DNA from: a bacterium
GTDB lineage: Bacteria; SAR324; NAC60-12
Length of the DNA: 64,000 bases
Assembly (NCBI GenBank): GCA_965233585.1
Contig: CBDDTI010000745.1
Span: forward strand, 352,001-416,000
Direction of reading: 5' to 3'
Shown piece by piece: positions 37,056 through 61,015 of the stretch (positions within the stretch are counted from its first letter, which is position 1; the number at the start of each line of letters is the position of its first letter). Position numbers and translations under genes: made by a program. Under the pieces are notes generated by a model. It was not told where the DNA came from. It did not search any database and worked only from the letters and a program-made list of their open reading frames with translations.

Positions 37056-37167
37056 AGAAACCAGCCCTCAAAGAACAACAAAGAAAAGTAAGGAGCAAGT
37101 CCAAGTGGGCAAGTAGGGAAGTTTTTAATGAATTTTTGAATCAATGAGTTTCAAGGAAAAAAGAAAG

Positions 37168-39544: not shown

Positions 39545-42500
39545 ATCTACAACAGTAGAAATTAAATAAGTCTATTAGACGATACGGCTTAGATCTGAAT
39601 CCTTCATATCTACAACAGTAGAAATTAAATAAGTCTATTAGACTCTCATGGTTATAGAAACTCCTATATATCTACAACAGTAGAAATTAAATAAGTCTAT
39701 TAGACCAGCAATGGATTAATAAGATTGGTGCAATCTACAACAGTAGAAATTAAATAAGTCTATTAGACGCGGGAAGATTTACGGACATAGTTACCTAATC
39801 TACAACAGTAGAAATTAAATAAGTCTATTAGACAGTTTCGCAAGTCCTGTGATCTTGACATCTACAACAGTAGAAATTAAATAAGTCTATTAGACAATAA
39901 CGGAGGTTAGTGTTGGGACTTAGATCTACAACAGTAGAAATTAAATAAGTCTATTAGACGTTGTTGAATGGAAAAAACGACAGAAATCTACAACAGTAGA
40001 AATTAAATAAGTCTATTAGACGCTCCTGAACGAGCGAACTGCTTCATATCTACAACAGTAGAAATTAAATAAGTCTATTAGACGAGCCACAACAGAAGCT
40101 CCCACAGGATATCTACAACAGTAGAAATTAAATAAGTCTATTAGACTAAAAAAAGCTGTCAGACTTGCGTCTCTATCTACAACAGTAGAAATTAAATAAG
40201 TCTATTAGACTATGCGGTGGTGATTGATGCAGACTACATCTACAACAGTAGAAATTAAATAAGTCTATTAGACGCATCTTGGAACAAACAGAATTTTACA
40301 TCTACAACAGTAGAAATTAAATAAGTCTATTAGACGAGCCACAACAGAAGCTCCCACAGGATATCTACAACAGTAGAAATTAAATAAGTCTATTAGACTA
40401 TGCGGTGGTAATTGATGCAGACTACATCTACAACAGTAGAAATTAAATAAGTCTATTAGACGCATCTTGGAACAAACAGAATTTTACATCTACAACAGTA
40501 GAAATTAAATAAGTCTATTAGACATGCGAAAAGGACTAGAGTGATGAGTATCTACAACAGTAGAAATTAAATAAGTCTATTAGACGATCCACAACAGAAG
40601 CTCCCACAGGATATCTACAACAGTAGAAATTAAATAAGTCTATTAGACATGCGAAAAGGACTAGAGTGATGAGTATCTACAACAGTAGAAATTAAATAAG
40701 TCTATTAGACGCACAAATCTCCAAGGCACCAGTGCATATCTACAACAGTAGAAATTAAATAAGTCTATTAGACACTTCTGACCTTATAATATCCTATGTA
40801 TCTACAACAGTAGAAATTAAATAAGTCTATTAGACTAAAGCAAGAAATATGACGACGCAAGTATCTACAACAGTAGAAATTAAATAAGTCTATTAGACTA
40901 AAGCAAGAAATATGACGACGCAAGTATCTACAACAGTAGAAATTAAATAAGTCTATTAGACTATAATGACAATCTGCACACATGTCATCATCTACAACAG
41001 TAGAAATTAAATAAGTCTATTAGACGAACTCAAAGCAGTCAATGCCTCATTATCTACAACAGTAGAAATTAAATAAGTCTATTAGACAGCATTTATTTCC
41101 ATTCTGAACAGAAATCTACAACAGTAGAAATTAAATAAGTCTATTAGACGAACTCAAAGCAGTCAATGCCTCATTATCTACAACAGTAGAAATTAAATAA
41201 GTCTATTAGACGGCATTTATTTCCATTCTGAACAGAAATCTACAACAGTAGAAATTAAATAAGTCTATTAGACCAAAAGGCGCTAAAGGTGAACTAATAA
41301 TCTACAACAGTAGAAATTAAATAAGTCTATTAGACCGTTGAAGAAGTAATCATCAGAGACAATATCTACAACAGTAGAAATTAAATAAGTCTATTAGACA
41401 ATTGGAGCGAAAAAAAGACGTTGACGAAATCTACAACAGTAGAAATTAAATAAGTCTATTAGACAAGTCTCTGTGCGACTCATCAATGGTGATCTACAAC
41501 AGTAGAAATTAAATAAGTCTATTAGACGGTGCTGCAATCTGCCAAAACGGGTCGTATCTACAACAGTAGAAATTAAATAAGTCTATTAGACTTCCAAGAT
41601 TGAAGAGTCTTTTTGTCTTATCTACAACAGTAGAAATTAAATAAGTCTATTAGACTCAACACGATCTAGGTTGTCTTTGGTATCTACAACAGTAGAAATT
41701 AAATAAGTCTATTAGACTTTTTCTGGAATTGATGCATACATCTATCTACAACAGTAGAAATTAAATAAGTCTATTAGACTTGAGACGTTAGTCGAGATCA
41801 GTTCGGTATCTACAACAGTAGAAATTAAATAAGTCTATTAGACGTTTTTCTGGAATTGACACGTACACCTATCTACAACAGTAGAAATTAAATAAGTCTA
41901 TTAGACCAAACTATTGAAGTTGAATACAATATATCTACAACAGTAGAAATTAAATAAATCTATTAGACTTTTTCTGGAATTGATGCATACATCTATCTAC
42001 AACAGTAGAAATTAAATAAGTCTATTAGACTTGAGACGTTAGTCGAGATCAGTTCGGTATCTACAACAGTAGAAATTAAATAAGTCTATTAGACGTTTTT
42101 CTGGAATTGACACGTACACCTATCTACAACAGTAGAAATTAAATAAGTCTATTAGACCAAACTATTGAAGTTGAATACAATATATCTACAACAGTAGAAA
42201 TTAAATAAGTCTATTAGACGCAAGATGAATCTTTTGAGATATTTCTATCTACAACAGTAGAAATTAAATAAGTCTATTAGACTTTTGGACAATCATGTTT
42301 ATAGAATTAATCTACAACAGTAGAAATTAAATAAGTCTATTAGACAGACTTTTTCAAATCTAATCCCTCGTATCTACAACAGTAGAAATTAAATAAGTCT
42401 ATTAGACAACAACGAAATTAACTTGAACAACCCTATCTACAACAGTAGAAATTAAATAAGTCTATTAGACATCATTTTCCGAAACTTGGAGAAACCAATC

Positions 42501-45500
42501 TACAACAGTAGAAATTAAATAAGTCTATTAGACAATTCAGGAGGGTATCATTCCCATTCTAATCTACAACAGTAGAAATTAAATAAGTCTATTAGACATG
42601 GAGGGGGGAACATTCTCAACACATCTACAACAGTAGAAATTAAATAAGTCTATTAGACAAAAAGAATTACGTCCCATTCTGGAGATCTACAACAGTAGAA
42701 ATTAAATAAGTCTATTAGACATGATGATAATTATCATCATCATCTAATCTACAACAGTAGAAATTAAATAAGTCTATTAGACATTACTGGATTGGATATA
42801 TGTAAATCCATCTACAACAGTAGAAATTAAATAAGTCTATTAGACTTCACAACTATAAATCTTCACAACTAATCTACAACAGTAGAAATTAAATAAGTCT
42901 ATTAGACCCTCTCAATAGACTGGTGCTGGGTTCATCTACAACAGTAGAAATTAAATAAGTCTATTAGACCTAGCTTCTCAAAAGCAAATGACTCAGAATC
43001 TACAACAGTAGAAATTAAATAAGTCTATTAGACAAAAAGAATTACGTCCCATTCTGGAGATCTACAACAGTAGAAATTAAATAAGTCTATTAGACATGAT
43101 GATAATTATCATCATCATCTAATCTACAACAGTAGAAATTAAATAAGTCTATTAGACATTACTGGATTGGATATATGTAAATCCATCTACAACAGTAGAA
43201 ATTAAATAAGTCTATTAGACTTCACAACTATAAATCTTCACAACTAATCTACAACAGTAGAAATTAAATAAGTCTATTAGACCCTCTCAATAGACTGGTG
43301 CTGGGTTCATCTACAACAGTAGAAATTAAATAAGTCTATTAGACCTAGCTTCTCAAAAGCAAATGACTCAGAATCTACAACAGTAGAAATTAAATAAGTC
43401 TATTAGACAAGATTTGGATTTGAGGAAGATGAAACCATCTACAACAGTAGAAATTAAATAAGTCTATTAGACACTTTGATGTCTGCTGCTCCGTATTATC
43501 TACAACAGTAGAAATTAAATAAGTCTATTAAACAAAAATAACTTACAAAATTGACAATTAATCTACAACAGTAGAAATTAAATAAGTCTATTAGACATGC
43601 AAGATTTAATAGCTTTTTCAGAAATCTACAACAGTAGAAATTAAATAAGTCTATTAGACCAATTCAATAAGAGTATTCTCTCACACCATCTACAACAGTA
43701 GAAATTAAATAAGCCTATTAGACAGGTTTGTATCATTCTATGATTCCGGATCTACAACAGTAGAAATTAAATAAGTCTATTAGACATGGAAAAGCAACAG
43801 AAATGTTACTTATCTACAACAGTAGAAATTAAATAAGGGCATTGTTAAGTAATAAGTGATAGCTGATTATTCCGTTGGCATTGTTAAGTAATAAGTGATA
43901 GTTGATTATTCCGTTTTGCCATGAACAAAAGAACAGAATATTGTAATGCTTTAAGAGACTTGCTGTAACATTTGGTTTTCCTTCTCATTCTTGCCAAGAA
44001 ATGTCTCAAGAGAGAATTATACCCTTCTACCGTGTATGTTTCTGCCTTGGAACATGTATGAATTTCTTTGGGAATGACTTGTTTGTAAGCCTTCCAGTGA
44101 TCAGTCATCACCTGAAGAGGTTTTGTTTCCTTGACCTTGTCCCATAAATGCCTACAGGCTTTTGAGTCTCTGTTTCCAAGCACACAATTGATAAATTGCT
44201 TCCCACATCTATCAACAGCAATCCAGAGCCAGCAGTAGTTTTTTTTGACTGGATGTAGGTGTGCATTTCATCAATTTCCATAATTTCAATGTCTGTGTCC
44301 TTTCTTAATGCCTTGAGCTGTTCGCCAAAACTACAGACCCAATTATAAACTGAAACATGAGAACAATTCAGCAAACGACCGATTGACCTGAAACCAAGAC
44401 CCTCCAAATACAACTCTAATGCTCTTCTTTTGATCTGTGGTGAGATTTGACCACGATAGGACTTGGTATATTGATAGTTGCAGGCATTGCAACGCCTCCT
44501 CGGTTTACCATATAAAAAACCATTCTTAACCATCTTCTCACTTTCACATCTAGGACACGACTTCATTGCTACACCATGACTATCAATTCAATTAAATGAA
44601 CTTAATATCGCATATCACTTATAGTTTAACAATACCGAAATTAAATAAGTCTATTAGACAAAGATTCAACAACATTTCTGAGCCTAATCTACAACAGTAG
44701 AAATTAAATAAGTCTATTAGACATCTGTGTTTTACATGGTTTTCTATCTTTATCTACAACAGTAGAAATTAAATAAGTCTATTAGACCTATTTGAGCAAA
44801 GGTCAATCTTGAATATCTACAACAGTAGAAATTAAATAAGTCTATTAGACTTAGACAAAAACCTTTTAGACGACCTATCTACAACAGTAGAAATTAAATA
44901 AGTCTATTAGACTAAGAGAAAAAAAATATCCGTGCCAAATCTACAACAGTAGAAATTAAATAAGTCTATTAGACGTGATGTTTGAGACACACCATCTTTT
45001 ATCTACAACAGTAGAAATTAAATAAGTCTATTAGACAGAATCATCAGACTCAATAGATTCAAATCTACAACAGTAGAAATTAAATAAGTCTATTAGACTA
45101 TAATGTTTAATCATTATTCTCTTAATCTACAACAGTAGAAATTAAATAAGTCTATTAGACTTTATTCTAAAAAATAAAATGAATAACATCTACAACAGTA
45201 GAAATTAAATAAGTCTATTAGACCCCCTAAAGTGATTTTTTTTGCATATTATCTACAACAGTAGAAATTAAATAAGTCTATTAGACATAAATACCCTAAA
45301 TTAGTTTGATTATATCTACAACAGTAGAAATTAAATAAGTCTATTAGACAACAATCAAAGAATCTTCAGAATCAAATCTACAACAGTAGAAATTAAATAA
45401 GTCTATTAGACAGAATTTTCTTTGACAAATCCTAGTTTATCTACAACAGTAGAAATTAAATAAGTCTATTAGACAAAGCACTGTCAGCAGAAAACCACAC

Positions 45501-48500
45501 ATCTACAACAGTAGAAATTAAATAAGTCTATTAGACCAAAAAAAATATGATGAACTCAATAACATCTACAACAGTAGAAATTAAATAAGTCTATTAGACG
45601 TCATTCAATCGCAACAAGAGTTGATTATCTACAACAGTAGAAATTAAATAAGTCTATTAGACGTTTTGGATTTAAGCCTAGTAAATACAATCTACAACAG
45701 TAGAAATTAAATAAGTCTATTAGACACAAACTTCATTTTTAGAAGAGAAACCATCTACAACAGTAGAAATTAAATAAGTCTATTAGACGATGCAAGAGCT
45801 AATAGCTTATGCAATATCTACAACAGTAGAAATTAAATAAGTCTATTAGACCAAGAACTCAAGAAATTGAATCTTTTATCTACAACAGTAGAAATTAAAT
45901 AAGTCTATTAGACAAGCGACAAAACAACTGGCATTTTGTATCTACAACAGTAGAAATTAAATAAGTCTATTAGACCGCATTCGTAATAGGGAGGATCCAG
46001 AATCTACAACAGTAGAAATTAAATAAGTCTATTAGACAAGAGGGGAACGAACTGTTTCCCCTTATCTACAACAGTAGAAATTAAATAAGTCTATTAGACG
46101 GGGAGCAGTCAGCTACATTGCTTCAATCTACAACAGTAGAAATTAAATAAGTCTATTAGACTCTGATTGGTTTCGGAAGATCAAAAAAATATCTACAACA
46201 GTAGAAATTAAATAAGTCTATTAGACGAGAAAAAAGTTTTGGAAATTGAACTCATCTACAACAGTAGAAATTAAATAAGTCTATTAGACCGCCAGTGCGG
46301 CAGAAAAATCAGCCACATCTACAACAGTAGAAATTAAATAAGTCTATTAGACTTTTAGATGCTGGTCAAGGTGTCCAAATCTACAACAGTAGAAATTAAA
46401 TAAGTCTATTAGACTTTTAGATGCTGGTCAAGGTGTCCAAATCTACAACAGTAGAAATTAAATAAGTCTATTAGACTCAAAAAATGGTCTATCTCTTTTG
46501 TCATCTACAACAGTAGAAATTAAATAAGTCTATTAGACGGTCTAAAAATGGTTTATCTCTTCTTTATCTACAACAGTAGAAATTAAATAAGTCTATTAGA
46601 CCTTCAAATAGGTCTATCTTCATATTGGATCTACAACAGTAGAAATTAAATAAGTCTATTAGACATTCAAATAATTATATGCGTTCCTTAATCTACAACA
46701 GTAGAAATTAAATAAGTCTATTAGACATTCAGATTTTGACAAATCTAATTATATCTACAACAGTAGAAATTAAATAAGTCTATTAGACGTGTGCTAGACT
46801 AGAGGCTTCTTTGGAATCTACAACAGTAGAAATTAAATAAGTCTATTAGACTCTTCAAAAGTAGAAGACCATCATGCCATCTACAACAGTAGAAATTAAA
46901 TAAGTCTATTAGACTGATGTAGCAAAAGTAACACCACCATATCTACAACAGTAGAAATTAAATAAGTCTATTAGACGTGTGCTAGACTAGAGGCTTCTTT
47001 GGAATCTACAACAGTAGAAATTAAATAAGTCTATTAGACCTTTCTCTGATAATGGAATGCCAACTATCTACAACAGTAGAAATTAAATAAGTCTATTAGA
47101 CTCTAATCTTTTAGCGCTTCTTTGGAATCTACAACAGTAGAAATTAAATAAGTCTATTAGACTTGAAAAACTGGGTTTTGATGCAAGTTATCTACAACAG
47201 TAGAAATTAAATAAGTCTATTAGACTTTAGTAACTAATCAATTCTTTTCCATATCTACAACAGTAGAAATTAAATAAGTCTATTAGACTTTGCGGAGTGG
47301 CTCCAGTGGAGCTGTATCTACAACAGTAGAAATTAAATAAGTCTATTAGACCGCAAGTTTTTGGATTTGGAACTGATATCTACAACAGTAGAAATTAAAT
47401 AAGTCTATTAGACAACAAAATAAACACAGAATTGAACAATGATCTACAACAGTAGAAATTAAATAAGTCTATTAGACTGTAAAGCATAAGACTCCTGCAC
47501 TCCATCTACAACAGTAGAAATTAAATAAGTCTATTAGACCGAGATGACCTAGCAGCAAGAATCGGATCTACAACAGTAGAAATTAAATAAGTCTATTAGA
47601 CTCAAAAAAAAAATGACATTTCCACTTTATCTACAACAGTAGAAATTAAATAAGTCTATTAGACTGTGCTAGACTAGATGATTCTTTAGAATCTACAACA
47701 GTAGAAATTAAATAAGTCTATTAGACGAGTATAGGAATCTTTTTGGACTCTTATCTACAACAGTAGAAATTAAATAAGTCTATTAGACGTATTTATAAAT
47801 ATTGATTCCTCTACATCTACAACAGTAGAAATTAAATAAGTCTATTAGACATCAGAATCCAAAGACTCATCAGAATCATCTACAACAGTAGAAATTAAAT
47901 AAGTCTATTAGACTTCCGAGTACTTTTGACTTGCAAAAGATCTACAACAGTAGAAATTAAATAAGTCTATTAGACGATGAAAATTAACCTATAGAATAAA
48001 ATCTACAACAGTAGAAATTAAATAAGTCTATTAGACAAGGAGAGCTAGGAGTAGTTAATTCGTATCTACAACAGTAGAAATTAAATAAGTCTATTAGACT
48101 TAAAAGGATCAATAGAAACAGAATAATCTACAACAGTAGAAATTAAATAAGTCTATTAGACGTTAAGTCCTAATGAAGATCATATTACATCTACAACAGT
48201 AGAAATTAAATAAGTCTATTAGACTATTGACCCAACAGACATGAGAACAAATCTACAACAGTAGAAATTAAATAAGTCTATTAGACCCTAAACATGTTTA
48301 ACTTCTGTGAGTATCTACAACAGTAGAAATTAAATAAGTCTATTAGACCAGAGCATCATTGAGCGTTTTATTTATCTACAACAGTAGAAATTAAATAAGT
48401 CTATTAGACAACCAGATTGGTGAGCCAAATAAGCAAATCTACAACAGTAGAAATTAAATAAGTCTATTAGACCCGACAATCAACATTTTAAGAACATACA

Positions 48501-51500
48501 TCTACAACAGTAGAAATTAAATAAGTCTATTAGACATTTTTATCTTCCCTTTTTTCTCTGGTATCTACAACAGTAGAAATTAAATAAGTCTATTAGACGA
48601 TCGCATTGCATCTATCAGGAGAAAATCTACAACAGTAGAAATTAAATAAGTCTATTAGACCTCTTCAGGTTTGACTTTTCCTTCTTTATCTACAACAGTA
48701 GAAATTAAATAAGTCTATTAGACATTGAATCGGAGCGGTTTTGATTCAAATCTACAACAGTAGAAATTAAATAAGTCTATTAGACATGTAGATTGTTTAC
48801 ATTGCGGGCATTATCTACAACAGTAGAAATTAAATAAGTCTATTAGACGATTCTTTAATTGGTTCTGATGAGTCTATCTACAACAGTAGAAATTAAATAA
48901 GTCTATTAGACCCTCATCAGGAGCGTCAGGACGATCAGATCTACAACAGTAGAAATTAAATAAGTCTATTAGACGCGCCATTGACCAGTGGCTTCAGTTG
49001 ATCTACAACAGTAGAAATTAAATAAGTCTATTAGACACACATCGCATCTATTCCCTTATCCCTATCTACAACAGTAGAAATTAAATAAGTCTATTAGACG
49101 TGATGACGTTCCCCCGAGAAAACAGACATCTACAACAGTAGAAATTAAATAAGTCTATTAGACTGGTGAAAGAGCAGGCAGACATACTCATCTACAACAG
49201 TAGAAATTAAATAAGTCTATTAGACTTTGTTACCTTTATCTCCTGTCTGTCCCTATCTACAACAGTAGAAATTAAATAAGTCTATTAGACAAATTGAAAG
49301 TCTTCAGCGTTTCACTATCTACAACAGTAGAAATTAAATAAGTCTATTAGACACTACTGCCAAACGATTCAAATCTGAATATCTACAACAGTAGAAATTA
49401 AATAAGTCTATTAGACATTACAAGTGGAATCATAGCAGTGAAAAATCTACAACAGTAGAAATTAAATAAGTCTATTAGACCCTGATGCAATGGAGGGATC
49501 AAGTCCATCTACAACAGTAGAAATTAAATAAGTCTATTAGACTCGTAAAGTTAAAAATTCTTCTGGAAATCTACAACAGTAGAAATTAAATAAGTCTATT
49601 AGACATTGACAGAAGGAATGATGTTAAGAATCTACAACAGTAGAAATTAAATAAGTCTATTAGACAATGAATGGGCTTAAAGCAAAAACTTTGATCTACA
49701 ACAGTAGAAATTAAATAAGTCTATTAGACCAAACTTCGCTGAATATCTAAGTCTAATCTACAACAGTAGAAATTAAATAAGTCTATTAGACAGAGAGGTG
49801 TAGAGGTTACACTCAATATCTACAACAGTAGAAATTAAATAAGTCTATTAGACTTTTTTATCTTGTAAATTGTAAACAGAATCTACAACAGTAGAAATTA
49901 AATAAGTCTATTAGACGTCCGTCAAATGGTCTCGCTGTTCAACATCTACAACAGTAGAAATTAAATAAGTCTATTAGACGTCCGTCAAATGGTCTCGCTG
50001 TTCAACATCTACAACAGTAGAAATTAAATAAGTCTATTAGACATTGTTGATTCCTTTGTTTATTCTGTATCTACAACAGTAGAAATTAAATAAGTCTATT
50101 AGACAAAATGAATACAGAAACAAACCATGATGATCTACAACAGTAGAAATTAAATAAGTCTATTAGACATTTATTATTTATAATGAGACCATTGATCTAC
50201 AACAGTAGAAATTAAATAAGTCTATTAGACAAAATTAAAGAAAACTCATTGGCTATAATCTACAACAGTAGAAATTAAATAAGTCTATTAGACAAAATCA
50301 ACAACATTGTTGGTCACCGCATCTACAACAGTAGAAATTAAATAAGTCTATTAGACCTCACTGGCATTGACTTTTCTAGTGCATCTACAACAGTAGAAAT
50401 TAAATAAGTCTATTAGACGAGATTTATTTTTTTGAATCTTATTTTATCTACAACAGTAGAAATTAAATAAGTCTATTAGACAGATGAGAATGACAACTTA
50501 TTTGACTATCTACAACAGTAGAAATTAAATAAGTCTATTAGACCTCACAAAAAAACCAGCATGCTGGCAATCTACAACAGTAGAAATTAAATAAGTCTAT
50601 TAGACTAAACCTAAACAATCCCAAGACTCTTATCTACAACAGTAGAAATTAAATAAGTCTATTAGACAGGATAAAAATGACAAAGAAAATAAAAATCTAC
50701 AACAGTAGAAATTAAATAAGTCTATTAGACGGAGTTACGTTGACTGCAGACAATGTATCTACAACAGTAGAAATTAAATAAGTCTATTAGACTCCCCGTT
50801 GGCTACATCGTTACCAGTATCTACAACAGTAGAAATTAAATAAGTCTATTAGACGGTTTTAATCTTGTCCAGCCTCCTGAATCTACAACAGTAGAAATTA
50901 AATAAGTCTATTAGACATTTTTCAGATATGTTTACAACGAAACATCTACAACAGTAGAAATTAAATAAGTCTATTAGACAGTCTTGTTGTCAAAGTCAAA
51001 GACAAATCTACAACAGTAGAAATTAAATAAGTCTATTAGACGAGATTGCGGGTCAAGCCCGCAATCTCATCTACAACAGTAGAAATTAAATAAGTCTATT
51101 AGACGCTAAAGCAGTCACCTCTGTCGCTTTATCTACAACAGTAGAAATTAAATAAGTCTATTAGACCAAGAGATCACCATTGCATGGTGCAAATCTACAA
51201 CAGTAGAAATTAAATAAGTCTATTAGACTGATTCAATGTTTTTTAACCTTTATTATCTACAACAGTAGAAATTAAATAAGTCTATTAGACTCTACTCCAG
51301 TCAAAAAAAGACCGCATCTACAACAGTAGAAATTAAATAAGTCTATTAGACCAAGGAGAACAACATGTTTCATTTTTTATCTACAACAGTAGAAATTAAA
51401 TAAGTCTATTAGACTTTTAGATTTTTCATTTTCTCCTTTAAATCTACAACAGTAGAAATTAAATAAGTCTATTAGACTTGGGCTTCACAGGTTGCCCATT

Positions 51501-52723
51501 GATGATCTACAACAGTAGAAATTAAATAAGTCTATTAGACCTTCCCTGTTGAGCTGAAACAATAAATCTACAACAGTAGAAATTAAATAAGTCTATTAGA
51601 CAAGCAAGCTTTAGCAAATTCCCCTCATCTACAACAGTAGAAATTAAATAAGTCTATTAGACACGGAAAGCATTGCCACGATTTCAGGATCTACAACAGT
51701 AGAAATTAAATAAGTCTATTAGACGAATTAATCCATGTTTATCAAGTGTATCTACAACAGTAGAAATTAAATAAGTCTATTAGACTCTGGGTTGACAACT
51801 ACGTATTTGTGTATCTACAACAGTAGAAATTAAATAAGTCTATTAGACTCATGGCTTCGAACTCGCCTATCGCAACATCTACAACAGTAGAAATTAAATA
51901 AGTCTATTAGACTCAAAATCTGCAGGTTTGGACTTCAATCTACAACAGTAGAAATTAAATAAGTCTATTAGACGTTTTTCAATGGATCATTTTGAATGAA
52001 TCTACAACAGTAGAAATTAAATAAGTCTATTAGACTGTATTGGATTTTTTCACCCGCGATGATCTACAACAGTAGAAATTAAATAAGTCTATTAGACAGA
52101 CAAAAAAAAATCGTGTTCAAAACATCTACAACAGTAGAAATTAAATAAGTCTATTAGACAATCAAACAAAACATAATGCGTTAACAATCTACAACAGTAG
52201 AAATTAAATAAGTCTATTAGACGGTATCACAATCGTGATTTGTTTTACATCTACAACAGTAGAAATTAAATAAGTCTATTAGACACAGAAATGAAATAAA
52301 TCTAAACATGCTATCTACAACAGTAGAAATTAAATAAGTCTATTAGACCCTCTCCATACCTTATCACGGACAAAGATCTACAACAGTAGAAATTAAATAA
52401 GTCTATTAGACGCCTTATGTCTCTGCATGGATAGAGACGATCTACAACAGTAGAAATTAAATAAGTCTATTAGACCATATTCACTAGTTTTTGAATCCAT
52501 AATCTACAACAGTAGAAATTAAATAAGTCTATTAGACATGAGTTTATCAATATTTATTGATGAATCTACAACAGTAGAAATTAAATAAGTCTATTAGACA
52601 CTAAAATGTCATAAATATCGTCAATATCTACAACAGTAGAAATTAAATAAGTCTATTAGACCAAAGACTCTTCAGTCCCGTCAGTCTATCTACAACAGTA
52701 GAAATTAAATAAGTCTATTAGAC
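39545..52723 (-). CRISPR. Type V-A CRISPR array, about 197 spacers (68 left of the IS, about 129 right; manual count)
   Basis: 36-bp repeat GTCTAATAGACTTATTTAATTTCTACTGTTGTAGAT (minus strand) ending in the canonical Cas12a handle AATTTCTACTGTTGTAGAT; spacers 25-29 nt. Confidence 0.99.
43838..44636 (-). mobile_element. IS1-family species A copy 3 (43877-44636) plus a 39-bp IS-end remnant (43838-43876), inside a CRISPR repeat
   Basis: Reverse complement of copy 2; GGCATTGTTAAGTAATAAGTGATAG occurs twice in tandem. Confidence 0.96.
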
Positions 52724-52996: not shown

Positions 52997-53272
52997 TCAA
53001 GAGATCATTATCAAATCAGACTCATCATTTTTGGCATAACCAAAACGTGTGATTTTGCATTGTTGGCTTAAATTAAAAATGATGATGCTGTCTGACTGGC
53101 TAAACGATTTGCTAAAGTCTGTCTCTATCTGCGTTTCAATCAAGTCCAAAATTCGTTTGCTATTTTCAATCTCAAAGACTGAATATTGCAGACGGTAGCC
53201 AAATTTTTTAAGAAACTCTGAGAACCTTGTCCGCAAAGGTGTCTCTGAAATATCATACGTCACAATCAACAT
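52997..53272 (-). CDS. cas2: CRISPR-associated Cas2
   Basis: IVTYDIS, FGYRLQYSVFE. Confidence 0.97.
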   Translation of the reverse strand: MLIVTYDISETPLRTRFSEFLKKFGYRLQYSVFEIENSKRILDLIETQIETDFSKSFSQSDSIIIFNLSQQCKITRFGYAKNDESDLIMIS

Positions 53273-53284
53273 GTCATACCTCCT

Positions 53285-54283
53285 CTATTGAATTTGCTTG
53301 GTTTCATTCTTTGCCTGACGCCTCATGCTAAAAACAGGGTAGTCCGCAATGGGCTTGTCCCTCATAAAAGAACGATAATAACTTTGCATATACAAAAACA
53401 TCTCTATCTTATACTCCAGCAAAACCTCCATATAAAGTTGAGTGTAAGGCTTGGCGTCTTTGCCAAAAAGTTTATATTGATTGTTGATGACCTTAAAATC
53501 TTCTTCTTTCACTTGTCCCAGCTGATACGCCTTGCGTGTCCTGTAATCAATCAAAGGACGGAACGGCTCTATCAAATCACAAACCAACGCCTTGCGTTGA
53601 AAAAACTCTTTGTGATACACGCCACGATACAAATCAAACCCGTAAATCTGCAAAAGAGCCTCAATCAAGTTAAACAACAAGGTATAGCCAATATCCAGCA
53701 AACAATTAATAGAATCTGCCTTCACTCTGGGTCTTCTGGCTTGCCAAGGATACACAGAAAAGATTTGCTTAAAATACACCCGCGAGGCAATCCCTTCCAG
53801 CCCCAAAATCTGCTGCAAATCTAAACCCTCCGTTTGAAGTTGCCCCCGATACTCCTTTAAACTGCTGATGGCTCTTTGGCAAGCAAGCGACTTTTCACGA
53901 ATCCGACCCAACGCCTCAATTTGATTGGACAACTTATTGCCTACCAGATGCCTTGCCACCTCAAGCCCGTCATAGTCATATTGTTTTTTTCTCAAACGGA
54001 CATTGCCCTCTATTTTCGTATTCCAAGACCCGTAAGGACGCAGACCATAATTCAAAAAAATGATGCTAAACCCAAACCGCTTAGCACGTTCCAACAAGCC
54101 AGAACTCACCGTACAATGACCCGAGATAAACAAAGCAAACAAACGATGACAAGTAGATTGATGCTTCAGCTGACCCTCCTTGTCATAAATCATAATATTG
54201 TCATTTTTGTAGCTAAATTTTTCTCCTAGGTTAGAAAACACAAAGAGAATCTGCTTCTTTTCAAAATCTGGTTTACTCAACAT
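53285..54283 (-). CDS. cas1: Type V-A Cas1
   Basis: Start MLSKPDFEKK overlapping the cas4 end; GLEGIASRVYF, NCLLDIGY, GVYH, LVCDLIEPFR. Confidence 0.96.
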   Translation of the reverse strand: MLSKPDFEKKQILFVFSNLGEKFSYKNDNIMIYDKEGQLKHQSTCHRLFALFISGHCTVSSGLLERAKRFGFSIIFLNYGLRPYGSWNTKIEGNVRLRKKQYDYDGLEVARHLVGNKLSNQIEALGRIREKSLACQRAISSLKEYRGQLQTEGLDLQQILGLEGIASRVYFKQIFSVYPWQARRPRVKADSINCLLDIGYTLLFNLIEALLQIYGFDLYRGVYHKEFFQRKALVCDLIEPFRPLIDYRTRKAYQLGQVKEEDFKVINNQYKLFGKDAKPYTQLYMEVLLEYKIEMFLYMQSYYRSFMRDKPIADYPVFSMRRQAKNETKQIQ

Positions 54284-54839
54284 CAGCCAAAGAATAATCG
54301 CAAAGGTTATGATAAATACAGCCACGACATTTAGCCGCAACAGGCGTAAAGTCTGCACTCATGTCAAAATCCCTCAAATCAGCAAGGCATTGTTCAAAGG
54401 CTTGAAAATCTTCAGGGCTATCTTCAGGCTTCTTCACGGGGTAACTTTTGTTGTCAACCATGCTGTACAACTTCAACTTCTCCACCTCATACCCCATCTC
54501 ACGCAAACAAAAATACTGGGCATACAACTGAAAAATATAACCCTGATACACCAGCCGAATCTGACGTTTACGTTCCACCAACTCCCGCTTCTTCTCATCA
54601 TAAATGTCAATCTTTCCGCACAATCCGTAACGTTCACAATACACATCTATCCCCTGCAACACATGACGAGAGGTGCTGTAACCCTTTTCATCAATACTCT
54701 GATGCGCCGCACGACCCTTCCTTTGAGCCGTGCCATGATACAACCACTCTGACGTCTGTGCATACAGCTGATGAAAGTAAATAGAACGAGGACAAAACAG
54801 AAAATCATTTAAATACGAAATTAAAATGTAACTCTCCAT
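54273..54839 (-). CDS. cas4: Type V-A Cas4
   Basis: LNDFLFCPRSIY, GKIDIY…VERK, QLYAQ, C..C…..C Fe-S ligands. Confidence 0.96.
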   Translation of the reverse strand: MESYILISYLNDFLFCPRSIYFHQLYAQTSEWLYHGTAQRKGRAAHQSIDEKGYSTSRHVLQGIDVYCERYGLCGKIDIYDEKKRELVERKRQIRLVYQGYIFQLYAQYFCLREMGYEVEKLKLYSMVDNKSYPVKKPEDSPEDFQAFEQCLADLRDFDMSADFTPVAAKCRGCIYHNLCDYSLADVE

Positions 54840-54981: not shown

Positions 54982-57900
54982 TTAGTCCTCTTCACTGTCT
55001 TTGTTGATAATCTCATACTTTGCCTTTTGCTTTTCTACAATTTCCTCCTTTTGAGAAAAATTTTGCCAATCAGTTTTTGTAATAGATAAATTCAGTTTAT
55101 CCTCCTCTTTCTCCTTAACAAAATCTCTTATTCTTTCCAATATCATGACTCCTTTTCTAGCAATGTTATAAGCTCCATTAGCATCGCTATCTACTGGCAA
55201 AGGAGCTTCACTTGGTTTATAGTTTTTTAACTGCCTACTATCAAAAAAAGGTTCAACAGGAGAAAGGATAAAATCATCTTTATTATTTTGGTCTCCTATA
55301 AAAACTCTCATATCTAAAAGCCGCTTCAAGTAAGCAATCAGTTTTGCTAAAAATTTAGATTCTTCAAATTGTTCTGTTAAATCTTGGCTACAAATAAAAT
55401 CCTTATAATCCTTGTTTTCTAAACCATCTTTTAACTCCTTATTGAATAAATCTACTAGTTTTTGATTGACATCAACTTTGACATTTTTTCTCCATTTGCC
55501 ATTAACTGCTTCTTTATATTCATCTTGTTTTCTTTGTTCTTCCGTTAGTTTAACCTCTTTATATTGCGACCTTTCTACATGACTACAAATAGTCCAAATC
55601 TTATTGATTTTTTCTTCATCTAAATCTTTCTTATCCTCATAAGACCCTGTCATTCCCTTTAGATTTTTTAAATTATAGGTAAATTCAAAAAACTTACCAT
55701 TGTATTTAATAGAATTAAATTTGCTAAAAAACTCTTGAGCTTTTTTAGCCTCGCTATACTTAGGATAAAGTCCTCTCATATATCCCGTGACAGGATCAGT
55801 TTTAGATGTATAACTAGCATCAGTGTAAAACAAAATTCCAGATTGAATTCCTATGTCACTAAAAGTTTTAAATTTATTAGTAAGTTGATAACCTTTTAGG
55901 TAATGTCCTGTTTTCTCAAAATCAGTTTCTTTTTTGTTCACTAAATAGTTAAGTTTATGGATCAATGCCATTTCAAACTTCTGATAAACCTGTTTTTCAA
56001 ATTTAAATCTTCCCCCTTTAAATCCAGCATTTAGGTTTTCTAAAACTACAATCGCATTATGTTTTAAGATTAACTGAGCAAGCTGATGCACGACTTGAGA
56101 AAGATAACCGTTTTTTAAGTCTTTGATGTTTTCTACTTTTTCCCAATTCTCTCTTGCTTTTCCTCTTGCTTTTTGTTTCTCATCTAATTTTTGATGATAA
56201 TCTATTTTTTGAGTTTCTTGACTTCCAGCAGGTTGAAAACCACTGTCAATTTCATTAAAACTTCCTTGTTCTAAAATTTTACCGTCTTTATCAATGACAC
56301 TATAATAAAGTAAATTCTTTTCACCCCTGTCTATCCCGATAATATTAATATCTTGGTAATGTTCTTTAAGAAAATCATTAATATCACTACTAATGTAGTC
56401 TCTCCCCTCGCTTTTAAAATTAATGGTAATCGAACAATGGAATAAAATTTTATCTTCACTATATCTTTTATCCTTTATTATTGGATAGCTGAATTTACTT
56501 TTTAACTCTTGGTAATGATGCCCTTTTTCTCTTTTTTCTTTTGAATAATTTAAAGAAGCCTTACGATAAAAAAGCTCTGCCTGTCCGTTGAGCTTAATAA
56601 CAACATCCTTTAAATTTTGCTCTTCAAATAATGCTTTCCAATAAATTGTATGAAGGTTAGGTCTGCCTTGACTTCTTTTTGAAAAATCTTTACTGTAAAT
56701 TTCAAAGAGATAAAATTTTTGATTTTCTACCATTCTATCCACATAAGATTGTGAGATATTAGAAAATTCTATTTTGTAGCCTTGCTTATTAATATCATCT
56801 GTAAACTCTTTTAGATTGTTGTACTCTTCAGTTTTTTCAAATTTTAAATCTGCCCATTTCCAGTAGCTTAAAGCACATTTTTTATAGTAATCAATAAGTT
56901 TTATCAAATCTTCTTTTACTATATCAGTACCTTTGTATGTTCCTTTTTCTCTTATTTTTTGTATTTCAGGACAATGTTTTTTCCTTATGACATCTAATCC
57001 TTTGGTAAATCTTTCCGCTTTACCATTGACATAAACCAAGTTATGAATATCTAATGCTGGATTAGCAACCTGTTTATAATCCATTTTTTTATACATGGAA
57101 GAATGATCACTTAGCAAGCTCAAATCAATTTCTAACCCCTGTATCTCTTCTTGAAGTATTGATATTTCAGACTTTAATTCTTTGTAAGTTTTTGTTCCTT
57201 CTTTCTTTTCAGAAAGATTTTTTTCTTTCTTTTTAATTTTTTTCTTTTTATCTTCTAAATCTTTCTCTAATTTAGTAAAATCAAAAAGATTTTTATTGTC
57301 TCTGCTCATTATCCCAAGATAATACTTTCCATCTTTGAGCAAAATGACACAAGTATTATCGGTTTCTTTGTTTTTATCCCAACCATTTGCCAACGTAGGA
57401 TTTTCAAAATTCAACTTGTACTTATCTTCATTAAATTCTTTTTTTGTTAAAAAATTTCTCACTTTATTATAGAATTTTGTAATATTATTCCTATCGGAAT
57501 TAGTAAATCTAATCACCGTATCATTCCAAATTTGTTCTTGATTTGCCCCCTTATCCGAATGAGTAAAATCTTTTTCCTTAACATTGAAACTTCTTAAAAA
57601 TCGGTATAAATCTTGTGAAGCGTCAAGATATTTTTTAATACTATTCTTTTCTTCTTGTTCAAAAGGATTTGTTAAACACTTCGCATTTTCTAGAATCTTT
57701 GAGTTTTCTAAATTTCTTAAATGCTCTTTTTGTTGCTTTAACAAATAAGTAAATTTATTCGCCAAATAAGTAAACAAAAAATCTTCTTCTGGCAAATCTT
57801 TTAAAAAAGCTCTTTTCTTTTTTATACCCTCTTGTTGATCTACTTGTCCAAAATTATCTTTTATTGGCTTAATAAATTGAGTATAAAAATTTGCTGATTC

Positions 57901-59616
57901 TTTCTTTTCTTCTTCTCCCAGATTAATCCATTCTCTTTTTTCATTTAACTTTTTCTGTAATTCTCCAAAAGTATAAACTTTTCTTCGGTGTTGCTTTTTG
58001 ACTTCTTTATCGTCAAAACTAGCTAAATACCAAGTTTCAAGACCTTTCCAACTAGATACTAAATCTTGCGAAAAAAACCTTAAAACTTCTTTGCTAACAT
58101 AAACATCATCTAAGTTTAGATGACTTCCATCATCTTTGTTTTGTTCTTTTCCATATTCCAATAATTCTGTAAAAGATAAATCACCGTTCTCTTTTTGAGT
58201 TTTATCTATATCTCTTATAAAATCTTCTTCTTTTTCTACAAATTTTTTTAATTCTTCTATAAGATGTTTATTGTCTTGAATTGTTTCAATGAATGCTCCT
58301 TTTTTACTTAAAATTTGTTTATAAAATTCTTTTAGAGATGGAAAGTTTTTTCTATCACCATCAATCTGTTGCCTTGTCAGATTAATAATTTCATTGAGTC
58401 CTTGTATTTTGGGGTTTTGTTCCTCTGCTTTCTGTCCCCCGATTATCAGATTATAGTCATCTACTCCTGTTTGAGAAAAGAATCTAAAAAAACTTTCAGG
58501 ACTCAAAAAAACTTCTGCTGAAAAATTTAGCTGTCGTTCTACTTTTCCTATTCTTTCCTGAAAATTCCAACTTTTTTCTTCCAGTTGTTTTTTAATTTCT
58601 TCTTTATTTAAGTATTCTTTTAACTTTTGCCATTTCAAAATATTATCAAAATGAAATTTTATATTCTGCTCAAATAAACGAAAAGCAATAGAAGTAGATT
58701 TAAAAATGCTATCTTTATTTTTAGCATTCTTATTTTCAATATCATAAACATTCTGTCTTGTTGTATTAAAGCCAGAAAAATAAGTATGAAAGGCATCAAA
58801 TTTTTTGATTGAATCAGTTACCTCTTGATTGTTAATAAAATATAACCTTAACAAAGTGAACAGATTATCAGTTTTGTCATAAAGATTTTTAGATTCAGAG
58901 AATTTGTAACCCTCGCATTTTTTGAGTTCTTTAATCTCTTTTTTTAAGTTGTTGATTTTTTGTTCCAATTCTTCTTTTTGTTTTATAAACTCTTCTTTCT
59001 GTTCTTTACTTTCCTTTAAAGTTTTTTTAATTTTTTGTTGTAGGTCACCTTTATAACTTTCAAGCTCATTTTTTTCTTCTTGTTTTTCATCAAGAAGATT
59101 TTCAAGATATTCTCTTTGCTCTGTAAAATTTTCTTCCAAAAATTTTGGAGCATTGGTATCAAGAACACTTTTTAAGTGCTTAGCAAGTTGTTTTTGAATT
59201 TCTATAATTTCTTTGTTATTCTTATCAATTTTACTGATAATTGCTTCTTGGTTTTCTGATTGTTTCTTCTTTTTTAGGTTTTTTAACTCTTTTTTTAAAG
59301 TTACATTTTCAGAATACTTTCCATAAAATTTATTAATTTCATCTTTTAATAAATTTTTAATTTCTTCTGACAAATTTTCTTTATCTAAGGCAAAAGATAA
59401 AAAATGACGGTGCAAGTCGTCTATTGCTTTTTTCACTTGCCTATATACCTCTGATTTTTCCCAATCTTCATAAATGAGTGGAGATAAAGGATTATTAAAA
59501 TCACTTTCCTCTTTTAGCTTTCTTATAATTTCTCTAGTCGCTCCCACAGGTTCCAAGCCAAAGCGAAGGGTTTTTTGCAACGAATATTGATTAATGAATT
59601 TTTTGAAAATGCTCAT
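54982..59616 (-). CDS. cas12a: Cas12a (Cpf1), unusually long (1544 aa)
   Basis: YSLQKTLRF, KLNFENPTLANGWDKNKE, PNLHTIYW, KLNGQAELF; RuvC IIGIDRGE, VVLENL, DSDANGAYNIARKG. Confidence 0.97.
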   Translation of the reverse strand: MSIFKKFINQYSLQKTLRFGLEPVGATREIIRKLKEESDFNNPLSPLIYEDWEKSEVYRQVKKAIDDLHRHFLSFALDKENLSEEIKNLLKDEINKFYGKYSENVTLKKELKNLKKKKQSENQEAIISKIDKNNKEIIEIQKQLAKHLKSVLDTNAPKFLEENFTEQREYLENLLDEKQEEKNELESYKGDLQQKIKKTLKESKEQKEEFIKQKEELEQKINNLKKEIKELKKCEGYKFSESKNLYDKTDNLFTLLRLYFINNQEVTDSIKKFDAFHTYFSGFNTTRQNVYDIENKNAKNKDSIFKSTSIAFRLFEQNIKFHFDNILKWQKLKEYLNKEEIKKQLEEKSWNFQERIGKVERQLNFSAEVFLSPESFFRFFSQTGVDDYNLIIGGQKAEEQNPKIQGLNEIINLTRQQIDGDRKNFPSLKEFYKQILSKKGAFIETIQDNKHLIEELKKFVEKEEDFIRDIDKTQKENGDLSFTELLEYGKEQNKDDGSHLNLDDVYVSKEVLRFFSQDLVSSWKGLETWYLASFDDKEVKKQHRRKVYTFGELQKKLNEKREWINLGEEEKKESANFYTQFIKPIKDNFGQVDQQEGIKKKRAFLKDLPEEDFLFTYLANKFTYLLKQQKEHLRNLENSKILENAKCLTNPFEQEEKNSIKKYLDASQDLYRFLRSFNVKEKDFTHSDKGANQEQIWNDTVIRFTNSDRNNITKFYNKVRNFLTKKEFNEDKYKLNFENPTLANGWDKNKETDNTCVILLKDGKYYLGIMSRDNKNLFDFTKLEKDLEDKKKKIKKKEKNLSEKKEGTKTYKELKSEISILQEEIQGLEIDLSLLSDHSSMYKKMDYKQVANPALDIHNLVYVNGKAERFTKGLDVIRKKHCPEIQKIREKGTYKGTDIVKEDLIKLIDYYKKCALSYWKWADLKFEKTEEYNNLKEFTDDINKQGYKIEFSNISQSYVDRMVENQKFYLFEIYSKDFSKRSQGRPNLHTIYWKALFEEQNLKDVVIKLNGQAELFYRKASLNYSKEKREKGHHYQELKSKFSYPIIKDKRYSEDKILFHCSITINFKSEGRDYISSDINDFLKEHYQDINIIGIDRGEKNLLYYSVIDKDGKILEQGSFNEIDSGFQPAGSQETQKIDYHQKLDEKQKARGKARENWEKVENIKDLKNGYLSQVVHQLAQLILKHNAIVVLENLNAGFKGGRFKFEKQVYQKFEMALIHKLNYLVNKKETDFEKTGHYLKGYQLTNKFKTFSDIGIQSGILFYTDASYTSKTDPVTGYMRGLYPKYSEAKKAQEFFSKFNSIKYNGKFFEFTYNLKNLKGMTGSYEDKKDLDEEKINKIWTICSHVERSQYKEVKLTEEQRKQDEYKEAVNGKWRKNVKVDVNQKLVDLFNKELKDGLENKDYKDFICSQDLTEQFEESKFLAKLIAYLKRLLDMRVFIGDQNNKDDFILSPVEPFFDSRQLKNYKPSEAPLPVDSDANGAYNIARKGVMILERIRDFVKEKEEDKLNLSITKTDWQNFSQKEEIVEKQKAKYEIINKDSEED

Positions 59617-59863
59617 AATAATTCCTAGAATTGAGTTAATGAAAAAACCAATCAGGATAGCATGGCTTTCACAAGAATCAAAGATTTTTCTGCCATTTTG
59701 CGAGAGCTGACCCTTGCTGTCTTTGAAGGCAAGCCTTTTGGTGATTTTGCAAAAAAGATTGCAAAGAAGATGAAAAGAGAAAAAGAAGTCAGGCAGATTG
59801 TGTGAATCTGAACGATAGGTTTGGCTGGAATGATAGAGTTTTCTTTGGGACTAAATGAAGAAC

Positions 59864-61015
59864 CTAAATGAAAGAACTTGCAGTCTGGCGTCCCCACCTG
59901 TCAGCTTCAAAATAGCATTCTAAATCTTGGGTATGATGAAAATCCTGACAAGCAGTTTTCCATTGTTGCATGACACGTTGCAGGGTGGTTGCGATGTCAG
60001 TCAAACCGATGTGTTCGTCAAGAAACGCCTTAACAACACACTCATTTGCACCATTCAACACTGCAGGTGCAAGACCTCCCAAAGATGCGGCATCAAGTGC
60101 AATCTGAAAGCAGGGATAACGTTTGTGACAAATCGGCTCAAAATGCAAGGTGTTTAAACCTTGAGCAGACAATCGGGGCAGTTTGAGAGGAAGCCTTTGA
60201 GGAAAGGATAAGCAGTAAGCAATGGGGAGCCGCATGTCTGGTGCAGACATTTGAGCCATCATAGATCCGTCCACGTATTCTACTAAAGAATGCACATGGC
60301 TTTGCCTATGAATCACAGCTTGAAAAGAAGCAAGGGGAATGTCAAACAAATGAGAGGCTTCCATGAGTTCCAAACCCTTGTTCATCATGGTTGCAGAATC
60401 TACCGTAATCTTGTCTCCCATCTCCCAGTTAGGGTGTTGCAAGACTTCATGCCGTTTGACCTTTGGCAGTTGTTCCAGCGGAACATCACGCAAAGCCCCC
60501 CCAGATGCTGTTAACGTGATTTGATGAACATCTTCTTTCTGCTGTCCTTGCAATGTTTGAAAAATGCCATTGTGTTCGCTGTCCACTGGCAAAATCAGGC
60601 TTCCTGAACGTCTAGCTTCACTCATCATCAAATCCCCTGCCAGCACTAAGGATTCTTTGTTTGCCAAAGCAACAGTCTTGCCTGCACAAATCGCCGCGTA
60701 TGTTGACCTTGCCCCTGCAACACCTACAATGGCAGCCACCACAAAATCCACTTGCGAAAGACTCGCCACCTGTTGTAACCCTTCGCTCCCATGCAATAAC
60801 TTCAGATGCTCTGGCAACGCCCCCAAATCTATCTGTTGCTCTGACGCCACACAGGCAAAAGCAGGCTGGAACTCTTGAATTTGAGAATACAAAAGGTCTG
60901 TGTTGGAATAGCAAGTTAAGGCTTCCACTTGGAAGTGTTCAGGGAATTGCCTGACAATGTCCAACGTACTTTGACCAATAGACCCTGTTGAACCCAAAAT
61001 GGCAATCTTTTTCAC
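59864..61015 (-). CDS. dxr: 1-deoxy-D-xylulose-5-phosphate reductoisomerase
   Basis: LGSTGSIG, LANKESL, PVDSEH, LTASGG, HPNW.MG.KITVDSATMMNKGLE. Confidence 0.98.
   Translation of the reverse strand: MKKIAILGSTGSIGQSTLDIVRQFPEHFQVEALTCYSNTDLLYSQIQEFQPAFACVASEQQIDLGALPEHLKLLHGSEGLQQVASLSQVDFVVAAIVGVAGARSTYAAICAGKTVALANKESLVLAGDLMMSEARRSGSLILPVDSEHNGIFQTLQGQQKEDVHQITLTASGGALRDVPLEQLPKVKRHEVLQHPNWEMGDKITVDSATMMNKGLELMEASHLFDIPLASFQAVIHRQSHVHSLVEYVDGSMMAQMSAPDMRLPIAYCLSFPQRLPLKLPRLSAQGLNTLHFEPICHKRYPCFQIALDAASLGGLAPAVLNGANECVVKAFLDEHIGLTDIATTLQRVMQQWKTACQDFHHTQDLECYFEADRWGRQTASSFI

Follow-up and report, generated by a model that had tools for sequence, protein, structure and literature searches.

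A long Cas12a with two built-out helical sites in a type V-A CRISPR locus of a poorly sampled bacterium

Does an oversized Cas12a with two added helical segments represent a new kind of effector, or is it a long member of a family that is already known? Cas12a is of major importance as an enzyme for genome editing and diagnostics, and the question is raised by a stretch of bacterial DNA of 64,000 nucleotides (nt), referred to as the window (contig CBDDTI010000745.1 of assembly GCA_965233585.1, positions 352,001 to 416,000). The window encodes a 1544-amino-acid (aa) Cas12a in a type V-A CRISPR locus. A preliminary description took this protein for a structurally distinct Cas12a whose two coiled-coil-like segments, rich in lysine and glutamate (K/E-rich), could mediate oligomerization, partner recruitment or shielding from anti-CRISPR (Acr) proteins. 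In this study, we examined the protein, its homologs and its locus computationally. We consider it probable that the locus is a functional-looking type V-A system with an ordinary Cas12a, and that the two segments, here called arms, are lineage-typical, dispensable extensions at the site where DNA enters next to the protospacer adjacent motif (PAM), conferring no new activity.

The open reading frame (ORF) contains no internal stop, and its product matched the Pfam models REC1, Cpf1_PI-like, RuvC_1 and NUC above their gathering scores. The NCBIfam equivalog model for Cas12a/Cpf1, TIGR04330, was matched with 776.7 bits, far above its cut-off (300). A phmmer search against the sequences of the PDB returned 26 distinct chains at E <= 0.001, all of the Cas12a type and none of them Cas12a3; the top match was ReChb (E 1.5e-196), and FnCas12a was matched with E 1.9e-182. 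For comparison within the family, an alignment of 98 rows was built from the window protein and 97 of its 119 best database matches; the other 22 were removed by hand for thinning, mostly for low coverage or truncated length and without a strict rule. AlphaFold2 was run as two independent jobs, one on aa 1-1200 with this alignment (mean predicted local distance difference test, pLDDT, 86.9; predicted template modelling score, pTM, 0.75) and one on aa 700-1544 (mean pLDDT 86.3). A Foldseek search with the model of aa 1-1200 placed FnCas12a first, with the lowest E value for 6i1l (4.3e-50), the highest template modelling (TM) score for 5ng6 (0.63) and the best agreement with states that hold the CRISPR RNA (crRNA) only. 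All 48 matches listed were Cas12a-type chains, one of them named ReChb. The predicted structure has the bilobed fold of Cas12a, with the REC1, REC2, WED, PAM-interacting (PI), RuvC, bridge helix (BH) and Nuc parts.

The catalytic residues are consistent with this assignment. The three RuvC acidic residues, D1096, E1193 and D1478, and the Nuc arginine R1437 are each invariant in all 98 aligned rows, which bears out the earlier claim of an intact 1544-aa frame with a complete acidic triad. The WED-II residues on the PAM side, K750 and N754 (Fn K613 and N617), are conserved in 91 and 94 of the 98 rows, respectively. The putative ribonuclease (RNase) site for pre-crRNA lies in a WED-III loop. In the available part of a structural study of FnCas12a, the RNase residues are given as H843, K852, K869 and F873 (10.1101/122648). 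K869, the sole RNase residue that maps cleanly, corresponds to K1048, and all 98 rows have the lysine there; K1031 fits K852 by its spacing. The loop is of a short GHH ("KGHH") type that is found in 63 of the 98 rows, whereas FnCas12a has "HPA...ANK" there, and the conserved H1033 and H1034 are candidates for the catalytic histidine. The motifs PNLHT (aa 986-990) and KLNG (aa 1008-1011), previously read as the pre-crRNA-processing motifs, are present; they correspond to Fn H804 and Fn K823-G826, however, and do not have that role. The effector is a genuine and intact member of the family, from a well-populated and unstudied branch, and, judged by its residues, appears to be ordinary in its catalysis. 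Such an enzyme would make crRNAs for itself out of the 36-nt repeats of its array and would cut DNA at the single RuvC site.

The window protein is about 240 aa longer than FnCas12a (1300 aa), and this difference comes mostly from predicted helical build-outs at two surface sites, both of which vary in length across the family. At site 1, the helix-loop-helix of REC1 spans about 176 aa as compared with 63 aa in FnCas12a, so that about 113 aa are added to an existing motif; F72 aligns with Fn F61, and L246 approximately with Fn F123. Four helices are predicted here (H84-117, H121-163, H165-198 and H204-235 in the model of aa 1-1200), with pLDDT values of 84-98 in 10-residue blocks of aa 81-240. 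Because H121-163 and H165-198 are separated by only one non-helical residue, they may form a single helix with a kink, about 78 aa long, with a return helix at each end. In a 20-row alignment, the short Cas12a rows match shorter versions of the first helix pair and have a gap opposite H165-235. Anchor residues 77 and 273 are 195 aa apart, farther than in any other of the 98 rows. The preliminary description placed a K/E-rich REC1 segment of about 75 aa at aa 160-235 (58912-59139) and treated it as an insertion. The position was right; the segment starts near aa 84, is larger than was thought, and is an elongation of the normal helix-loop-helix. Alignment to normal Cas12a helices had been named in advance as a sign against novelty, and the elongation is largely of this kind. 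According to the FnCas12a study, this helix-loop-helix moves to a "flap-on" position that covers the displaced non-target strand (10.1101/122648).

At site 2, the 12-aa WED-II loop D642-G653 of FnCas12a is replaced by 57 aa that are predicted as an antiparallel hairpin of two helices. It consists of a basic helix (H780-803, net charge +4), a turn (804-808) and an acidic helix (H809-835, net charge -3); the same helices were predicted in both AlphaFold2 jobs, with block pLDDT values of 90-98. The hairpin corresponds to the second K/E-rich segment, correctly located before the PI domain in the preliminary description (aa 779-841, 57094-57282). Five residues separate its end from Y847 (Fn Y659), which is part of a strand that runs into the PI domain, and the LKL motif (Fn L662-I679) follows shortly downstream. 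The FnCas12a study, as far as its text was available, describes the LKL motif and reports that Y659 helps to invert the -1 phosphate (10.1101/122648). The earlier statement that the LbCas12a, FnCas12a and AsCas12a enzymes are shorter and lack these segments also held: the solved chains have 1228, 1300 and 1307 aa, and when the arm regions were searched alone against the PDB sequences, no Cas12a chain aligned across either arm.

Compared with the family as a whole, the protein is far less unusual. Among the 119 best database matches, 29 have at least 1450 aa and 15 at least 1544 aa, with a maximum of 1650 aa; a review gives a size range of 1200-1500 aa for the Cas12a family (PMC6507119). The anchors 77-273 are at least 150 aa apart in 44 of the 98 rows, and the anchors 778-842 are at least 45 aa apart, as in the site-2 hairpin, in 27 rows. 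These 27 hairpins have a common turn and hydrophobic pattern and are therefore considered homologous; they include the Leptospira proteins P0063 and P0067, which are named Cas12a/Cpf1 by NCBI. The closest homologs, P0002-P0012 (41-55% identity), all have the REC1 expansion, and most of them have the hairpin. The preliminary description had itself stated that close homologs carrying the same insertions would speak against its claim, and such homologs are largely what the searches returned. Thus, the protein is structurally distinct from AsCas12a, LbCas12a and FnCas12a at two helical sites, but not from the family, in which many homologs have the arms. These homologs are known as annotated or anonymous database entries, and large size and coiled-coil-like segments are common features of the family that do not mark a new system. 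No description of either arm was found in the literature on Cas12a insertions, in a search mostly outside subscription papers.

A core tree was built with FastTree from 864 core columns, with both trait regions excluded. Together with P0002 (support 100), the window protein falls within a clade of six rows (support 100) and within one of 13 rows (support 97). On this tree, the presence of the hairpin changes at least 11 times and the long helix-loop-helix at least seven times. Within the 13-row clade, site 2 is only 13 aa long in the close relatives P0005 and P0009, which keep all the invariant residues; in P0010, whose WED-II region is divergent, it is 15 aa long. Identity to P0002-P0013 is 28-46% at site 1 and 24-35% at site 2 (hairpin rows), as compared with 61-80% in the RuvC region, and hydrophobic positions are conserved within the arms. 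The arms may thus evolve as a scaffold, with lower identity than the RuvC region and with their hydrophobic positions kept. A coupling between the two arms was considered and rejected, since a sign test gave a median p of 1 with 8 independent pairs when well-supported branches were used and 11 when all branches were used.

Two smaller additions, also lineage-specific, were noted outside the arms. In the Nuc domain, aa 1349-1381 (approximately 55474-55572) contain a strand-loop-strand insert of about 25 aa that is present in P0002-P0005, P0010 and P0011 and absent from P0006-P0008. The C-terminus, aa 1497-1544 (approximately 54985-55128), is a K/E-rich helical tail that is lineage-specific.

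Among the arm-bearing homologs, the Cas12a/Cpf1 proteins of Leptospira sp. 96542 and L. ilyithenensis (P0063, 1555 aa; P0067, 1562 aa) and P0003 (1556 aa), from a "Candidatus Woesearchaeota" metagenome-assembled genome (MAG), have the same hairpin with its conserved turn. Their helix-loop-helix is expanded as well: the anchors 77-273 enclose 170 aa in P0003 and 138-139 aa in the two Leptospira proteins. Their overall identity to the window protein is 34-49% in the alignment and 36-48% by the database search, and the PI domain differs: P0003 has type B by motif (PI types are described below), and P0063 and P0067 have a related "LIPKC" variant that is left unassigned by the motif rule. No studies of these three proteins were found in the literature searched. 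The locus of P0003 (L001; OZ242164.1) has the same order as the window, with cas12a followed by cas4, cas1, cas2 and the array, and the same 3' end of the repeat. It differs by two genes between the long cas12a and cas4 (L001, 14670-19527), both of which are absent from the window: one encodes a 1185-aa Cas12a3-like nuclease (PDB 21we, E 3.2e-69; 9hlx, E 8.7e-49), and the other an AAA_14/DUF4143 ATPase with a match to PDC-S01 of PADLOC. The window protein and the Cas12a2 and Cas12a3 proteins are alike in being large RuvC effectors that use Cas12a-type repeats. L001, the closest genome-level relative, lies in an archaeal MAG, suggesting transfer between domains.

The PI domain is mosaic: by its identity pattern, it has a history different from that of the rest of the protein and has been exchanged between lineages. 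Residues 848-950 are 62% identical to those of P0077, a protein on the other side of the tree with 39% overall identity, and residues 842-950 are only 18% identical to those of the nearest relative, P0002. By motif, 52 of the 98 rows have a PI domain of type A (Fn-like), 13 of type B and 23, the window protein among them, of type C, and 10 rows are unassigned; type C changes at least 10 times on the core tree, and type B presumably resembles the PI domain of AsCas12a. The canonical lysines of the Fn/Lb-type LKL motif (Fn K667 and K671) are absent. L855 stands at the column of Fn K667, in which 78 rows have K, six R, 10 T and two L; N859 stands at the column of Fn K671, in which 72 rows have K and 17 have N, with K or R in 76. 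We take the residue at the Fn K671 position to be the lysine that is acetylated by AcrVA5. The Pfam PI model matches aa 881-947 only, and the LKL part lies outside this match. In FnCas12a, according to the available part of the study, these lysines read the PAM and start unwinding, and the substitutions K667A and K671A lower cleavage (10.1101/122648). The possibility that the hairpin compensates for the missing LKL lysines was rejected, since the hairpin occurs with PI type A (7 rows), type B (11 rows) and type C (3 rows).

These observations support the reading of the arms as lineage-typical extensions of an ordinary enzyme. The arms seem to be dispensable because P0005 and P0009 lack the hairpin and are yet intact, because the hairpin has changed so often on the tree, and because it occurs with all three PI types. 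In sequence terms, both arms border the cleft that holds and unzips the PAM duplex; they would widen the cover over the PAM-proximal DNA and the non-target strand, and could also hinder the access of inhibitors. Several points weigh against this reading. Where the arms point and how far they lie from the PAM duplex are taken from sequence position only, the 3' end of site 1 (about L246 = Fn F123) comes from a low-identity alignment and is approximate, and high pLDDT values on long K/E-rich helices can overstate the certainty of their packing. The charges of the two site-2 helices neutralize each other, which argues against a simple DNA-binding role of the basic helix. L855 and N859 replace lysines that are important for cleavage by FnCas12a, so normal activity is an assumption. 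No histidine aligns with Fn H843, opposite which phmmer places N1023. Finally, the phage and plasmid sets yielded no protospacer, so that neither the PAM nor activity can be read from the spacers.

Alternatively, the arms may be tolerated expansions at permissive loops without any selected function, which we regard as possible, if somewhat unlikely. The repeated loss of the hairpin in otherwise intact close relatives such as P0005 and P0009, the faster change of the arm sequences than of the core, and the lack of association between the two arms would all be expected of neutral decoration. However, the turn motif of the hairpin and the heptad hydrophobics persist across deep branches, the REC1 expansion is retained in 11 of the 11 nearest homologs, and segments of 57 and 113 aa would be costly to maintain by drift alone.

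An unlikely explanation, but one with a precedent, is that the arms and the lysine-free PI loop are kept to deny phage inhibitors the PAM cleft, by steric or chemical means. In the parts available of a study of AsCas12a, a two-helix bundle of the WED domain blocks AcrVA4, its swap transfers resistance, and the authors propose that such insertions and deletions (indels) serve as Acr shields (PMC6711708). Like the arms, this bundle is a helical WED add-on that occurs in some orthologs only, is patchy and is dispensable for DNA cutting; the shielding was shown for AsCas12a (PMC6711708) and is conjecture for the arms of the window protein. The bundle sits at another site, in WED-III near the RNase center, where the window protein is short (26 aa, S1021-K1048) and where P0002, P0010, P0013 and P0021 have 70-82 aa. 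The patchy gain and loss of the hairpin and of PI type C, together with the mosaic PI domain, are what an arms race would be expected to leave, and N859 stands in place of the lysine taken to be the AcrVA5 target. Neutral indels fit the patchy distribution equally well, however, and neither an Acr gene nor an Acr-bearing phage was identified for the host.

The substitutions in the LKL motif also raise the possibility that DNA targeting is altered or disabled: without equivalents of Fn K667 and K671, the enzyme might use a different PAM or mode of unwinding, or be a weak cutter. The lysines at these positions in most rows, the effect of their replacement in FnCas12a and the failure of the Pfam PI match to reach the LKL part are consistent with this. 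We nevertheless hold it to be distinctly unlikely. The N at the K671 position and the type-C PI domain recur in the family, the latter also in many short Cas12a proteins, so that the domain seems to be an alternative that works and not a product of decay. Moreover, K750 and N754 are conserved, no nuclease residue has been lost, and the long array is uniform. It is still less probable that the REC1 flap, the WED-II hairpin and the exchanged, lysine-free PI domain jointly form a remodeled gate for the PAM duplex, which would bring a different PAM read-out or unwinding and resistance to inhibitors, and would offer modules for transplantation onto editing enzymes.

The coiled-coil-like character of the arms, which underlay the earlier proposal of oligomerization or partner recruitment, stood in part. 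The long helices were indeed predicted, and a heptad/charge filter flagged aa 117-146, 158-189, 193-235 and 769-806. The a/d hydrophobic spacing of each helix was compared with 2000 composition-preserving shuffles. It lay above the shuffles in three of the six arm helices, namely H204-235 and H780-803 (each reached by 9 of 2000) and H809-835 (reached by 0 of 2000); it was marginal in H84-117 (106 of 2000) and H165-198 (95 of 2000) and absent in H121-163 (541 of 2000). The matches of the arms alone to coiled-coil proteins, that is, SAS-6, kinesin, keratin, Rad50 and plectin, were insignificant (E 0.22-0.85). A two-copy complex prediction of REC1 aa 26-440, run without controls, scored 0.01 (mark, 0.42), which weighs neither for nor against binding. 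Despite the heptad pattern and these insignificant similarities, pairing of the arms between Cas12a molecules or their binding of another protein is very improbable, because the helices come in consecutive short-turn pairs and the site-2 charges are complementary, so that they are likely satisfied within one chain, while the operon has no conserved extra gene (the gap between cas12a and cas4 is about 140 nt) and the Cas12a3-like nuclease and ATPase of L001 are not obvious arm partners.

The locus in which this Cas12a is found is a complete type V-A locus, as the preliminary description had stated (Table 1). The genes cas4, cas1 and cas2 are each intact and follow cas12a downstream on the same strand, and the array, with its 197 repeats, adjoins cas2 with its leader side. 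The listed GTG start of cas1 overlaps cas4, and the true start may therefore be further downstream. The ORF list of the window contains no second effector gene.

Table 1. Coordinates of the locus features and of the Cas12a regions discussed in the text (positions in the window)
Feature	Coordinates	Strand	Evidence
CRISPR array with 197 repeats (36 nt) and 195 spacers (25-29 nt)	39545..52723	-	TRF; repeat and spacer counts
IS1-family insertion sequence, 799 bp, splitting one repeat	43838..44636	-	Repeat gap; ORFs; Pfam DDE_Tnp_IS1, E 3.5e-11
cas2	52997..53272	-	Pfam CRISPR_Cas2, E 7.1e-13
cas1	53285..54358	-	Pfam Cas_Cas1, E 2.8e-49
cas4	54273..54839	-	Pfam Cas_Cas4, 29.7 bits (cut-off 22.7)
cas12a (P0001), 1544 aa	54982..59616	-	ORF and translation; Pfam; TIGR04330; PDB phmmer; Foldseek
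RuvC-I/II/III, bridge helix and Nuc, aa 1091-1500	55117..56346	-	Alignment; Pfam RuvC_1 and NUC; AlphaFold2 (aa 700-1544)
WED-III loop, putative pre-crRNA RNase site, "KGHH" type, aa 1019-1052: K1031, H1033, H1034, K1048	56461..56562	-	Alignment to Fn 833-873
PI domain, "type C", aa 842-950	56767..57093	-	Residue mapping by Fn alignment; identity comparison; column counts
Site 2, predicted WED-II loop helical hairpin, aa 779-838	57103..57282	-	Two AlphaFold2 jobs; alignment
Site 1, predicted REC1 helix-loop-helix "flap", aa 72-247	58876..59403	-	AlphaFold2; alignment to Fn

In the array, 194 of the 197 repeats are identical, and the remaining three have a single mismatch and are all cas-distal; on this indirect basis, the earlier suggestion that the locus was recently active is plausible. 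Read from the sequence, the last 19 nt of the minus-strand repeat form a stem of 5 bp with a loop of 4 nt, a 3' stem-loop that we take to be the same in the FnCas12a repeat. For protospacers, 44800-52723 and 39545-43800 were searched against the phage set and 44800-52723 only against the plasmid set, in distant mode and with an E limit of 10 in one search and of 1 in the others. No usable protospacer was found in either set; the only strong matches were to the repeat itself. The other matches were weak (73-93% identity), and the one that was checked (Pelagibacter phage HTVC200P) spans a junction of repeat and spacer. With up to three mismatches allowed, no spacer matched DNA elsewhere in the window.

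Some phage matches to the repeat were noted. A 24-nt stretch identical to the repeat occurs in the Leptospira phages KF114879, KF114880 and KX656785. The microvirus MK496734.1 from capybara gut has, at 2204-2242 (L002, 401-439), a lone identity of 22 nt to the handle end of the Cas12a repeat, which is intergenic and follows a hairpin. This lone stretch is presumably akin to the solitary repeat units that have been put forward as RNA anti-CRISPRs. The phage-borne stretch is a part of the repeat common to many Cas12a systems and thus says nothing specific about the present host.

The array has also been rearranged. Eighteen spacer sequences are each present twice (40084-43372, 46353-47003 and 49917-50006), and two sets of tandem block duplications are found, with spacers 34-37 equal to 38-41 and spacers 49-54 equal to 55-60. 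Fifteen of the 18 duplicate pairs lie in the cas-distal third, which points to recombination within the array. The IS1-family element occupies an inter-repeat gap of 901 nt (43786-44686) and divides the array into 129 leader-proximal and 68 distal repeats. Its inverted ends are imperfect, 13 nt of the repeat are duplicated on its flanks, and it contains two overlapping minus-strand ORFs of 152 aa (with a zinc-finger/helix-turn-helix N-terminus) and 99 aa (with the DDE_Tnp_IS1 match).

Directly upstream of the cas12a region lie the bacterial genes uppS, cdsA and dxr, with a histidine kinase gene at a greater distance (Pfam and NCBIfam). The closest named Dxr homologs are proteins of the SAR324 cluster, and their identity of only about 51-54% suggests that the host is a poorly sampled bacterium. 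Between dxr and cas12a, an 81-aa ORF (59652-59897, minus strand) shares 34 nt with the 3' end of dxr; it has no match in Pfam, NCBIfam or PADLOC and is unlikely to be a gene. An Rpn-family recombination-promoting nuclease/putative transposase (TIGR01784, E 8.2e-47) is encoded at 37144-38001 (plus strand), about 1.5 kb away from the array's distal end, and a homolog of the spr1629-family repressor/antitoxin lies further upstream (29990-31105, minus strand). Rfam and tRNA scans of the window gave no matches; no search was aimed at a trans-activating crRNA (tracrRNA).

In sum, the window protein resembles FnCas12a (5ng6, 5nfv and 6i1k) in its fold, RuvC triad, Nuc arginine, K869 equivalent and WED-II residues on the PAM side, and differs from it in length, in the two helical sites, in the LKL lysines and in the RNase loop. 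The immediate value of this result is negative: the distinctiveness of the protein holds against the three laboratory enzymes only and not against the whole family, and if the arms do nothing measurable, it is simply a long ortholog. The solved Cas12a structures are all of short orthologs (1206-1365 aa), and the locus samples a large unstudied branch of the family in which the REC1 flap and the WED-II loop are built out and the PI domain has passed from one lineage to another. Should the arms or the lysine-free PI domain alter the PAM range, the gating of the R-loop or the sensitivity to Acr proteins, they would be useful parts for engineering and would also provide a second case of arms-race indels in Cas12a.

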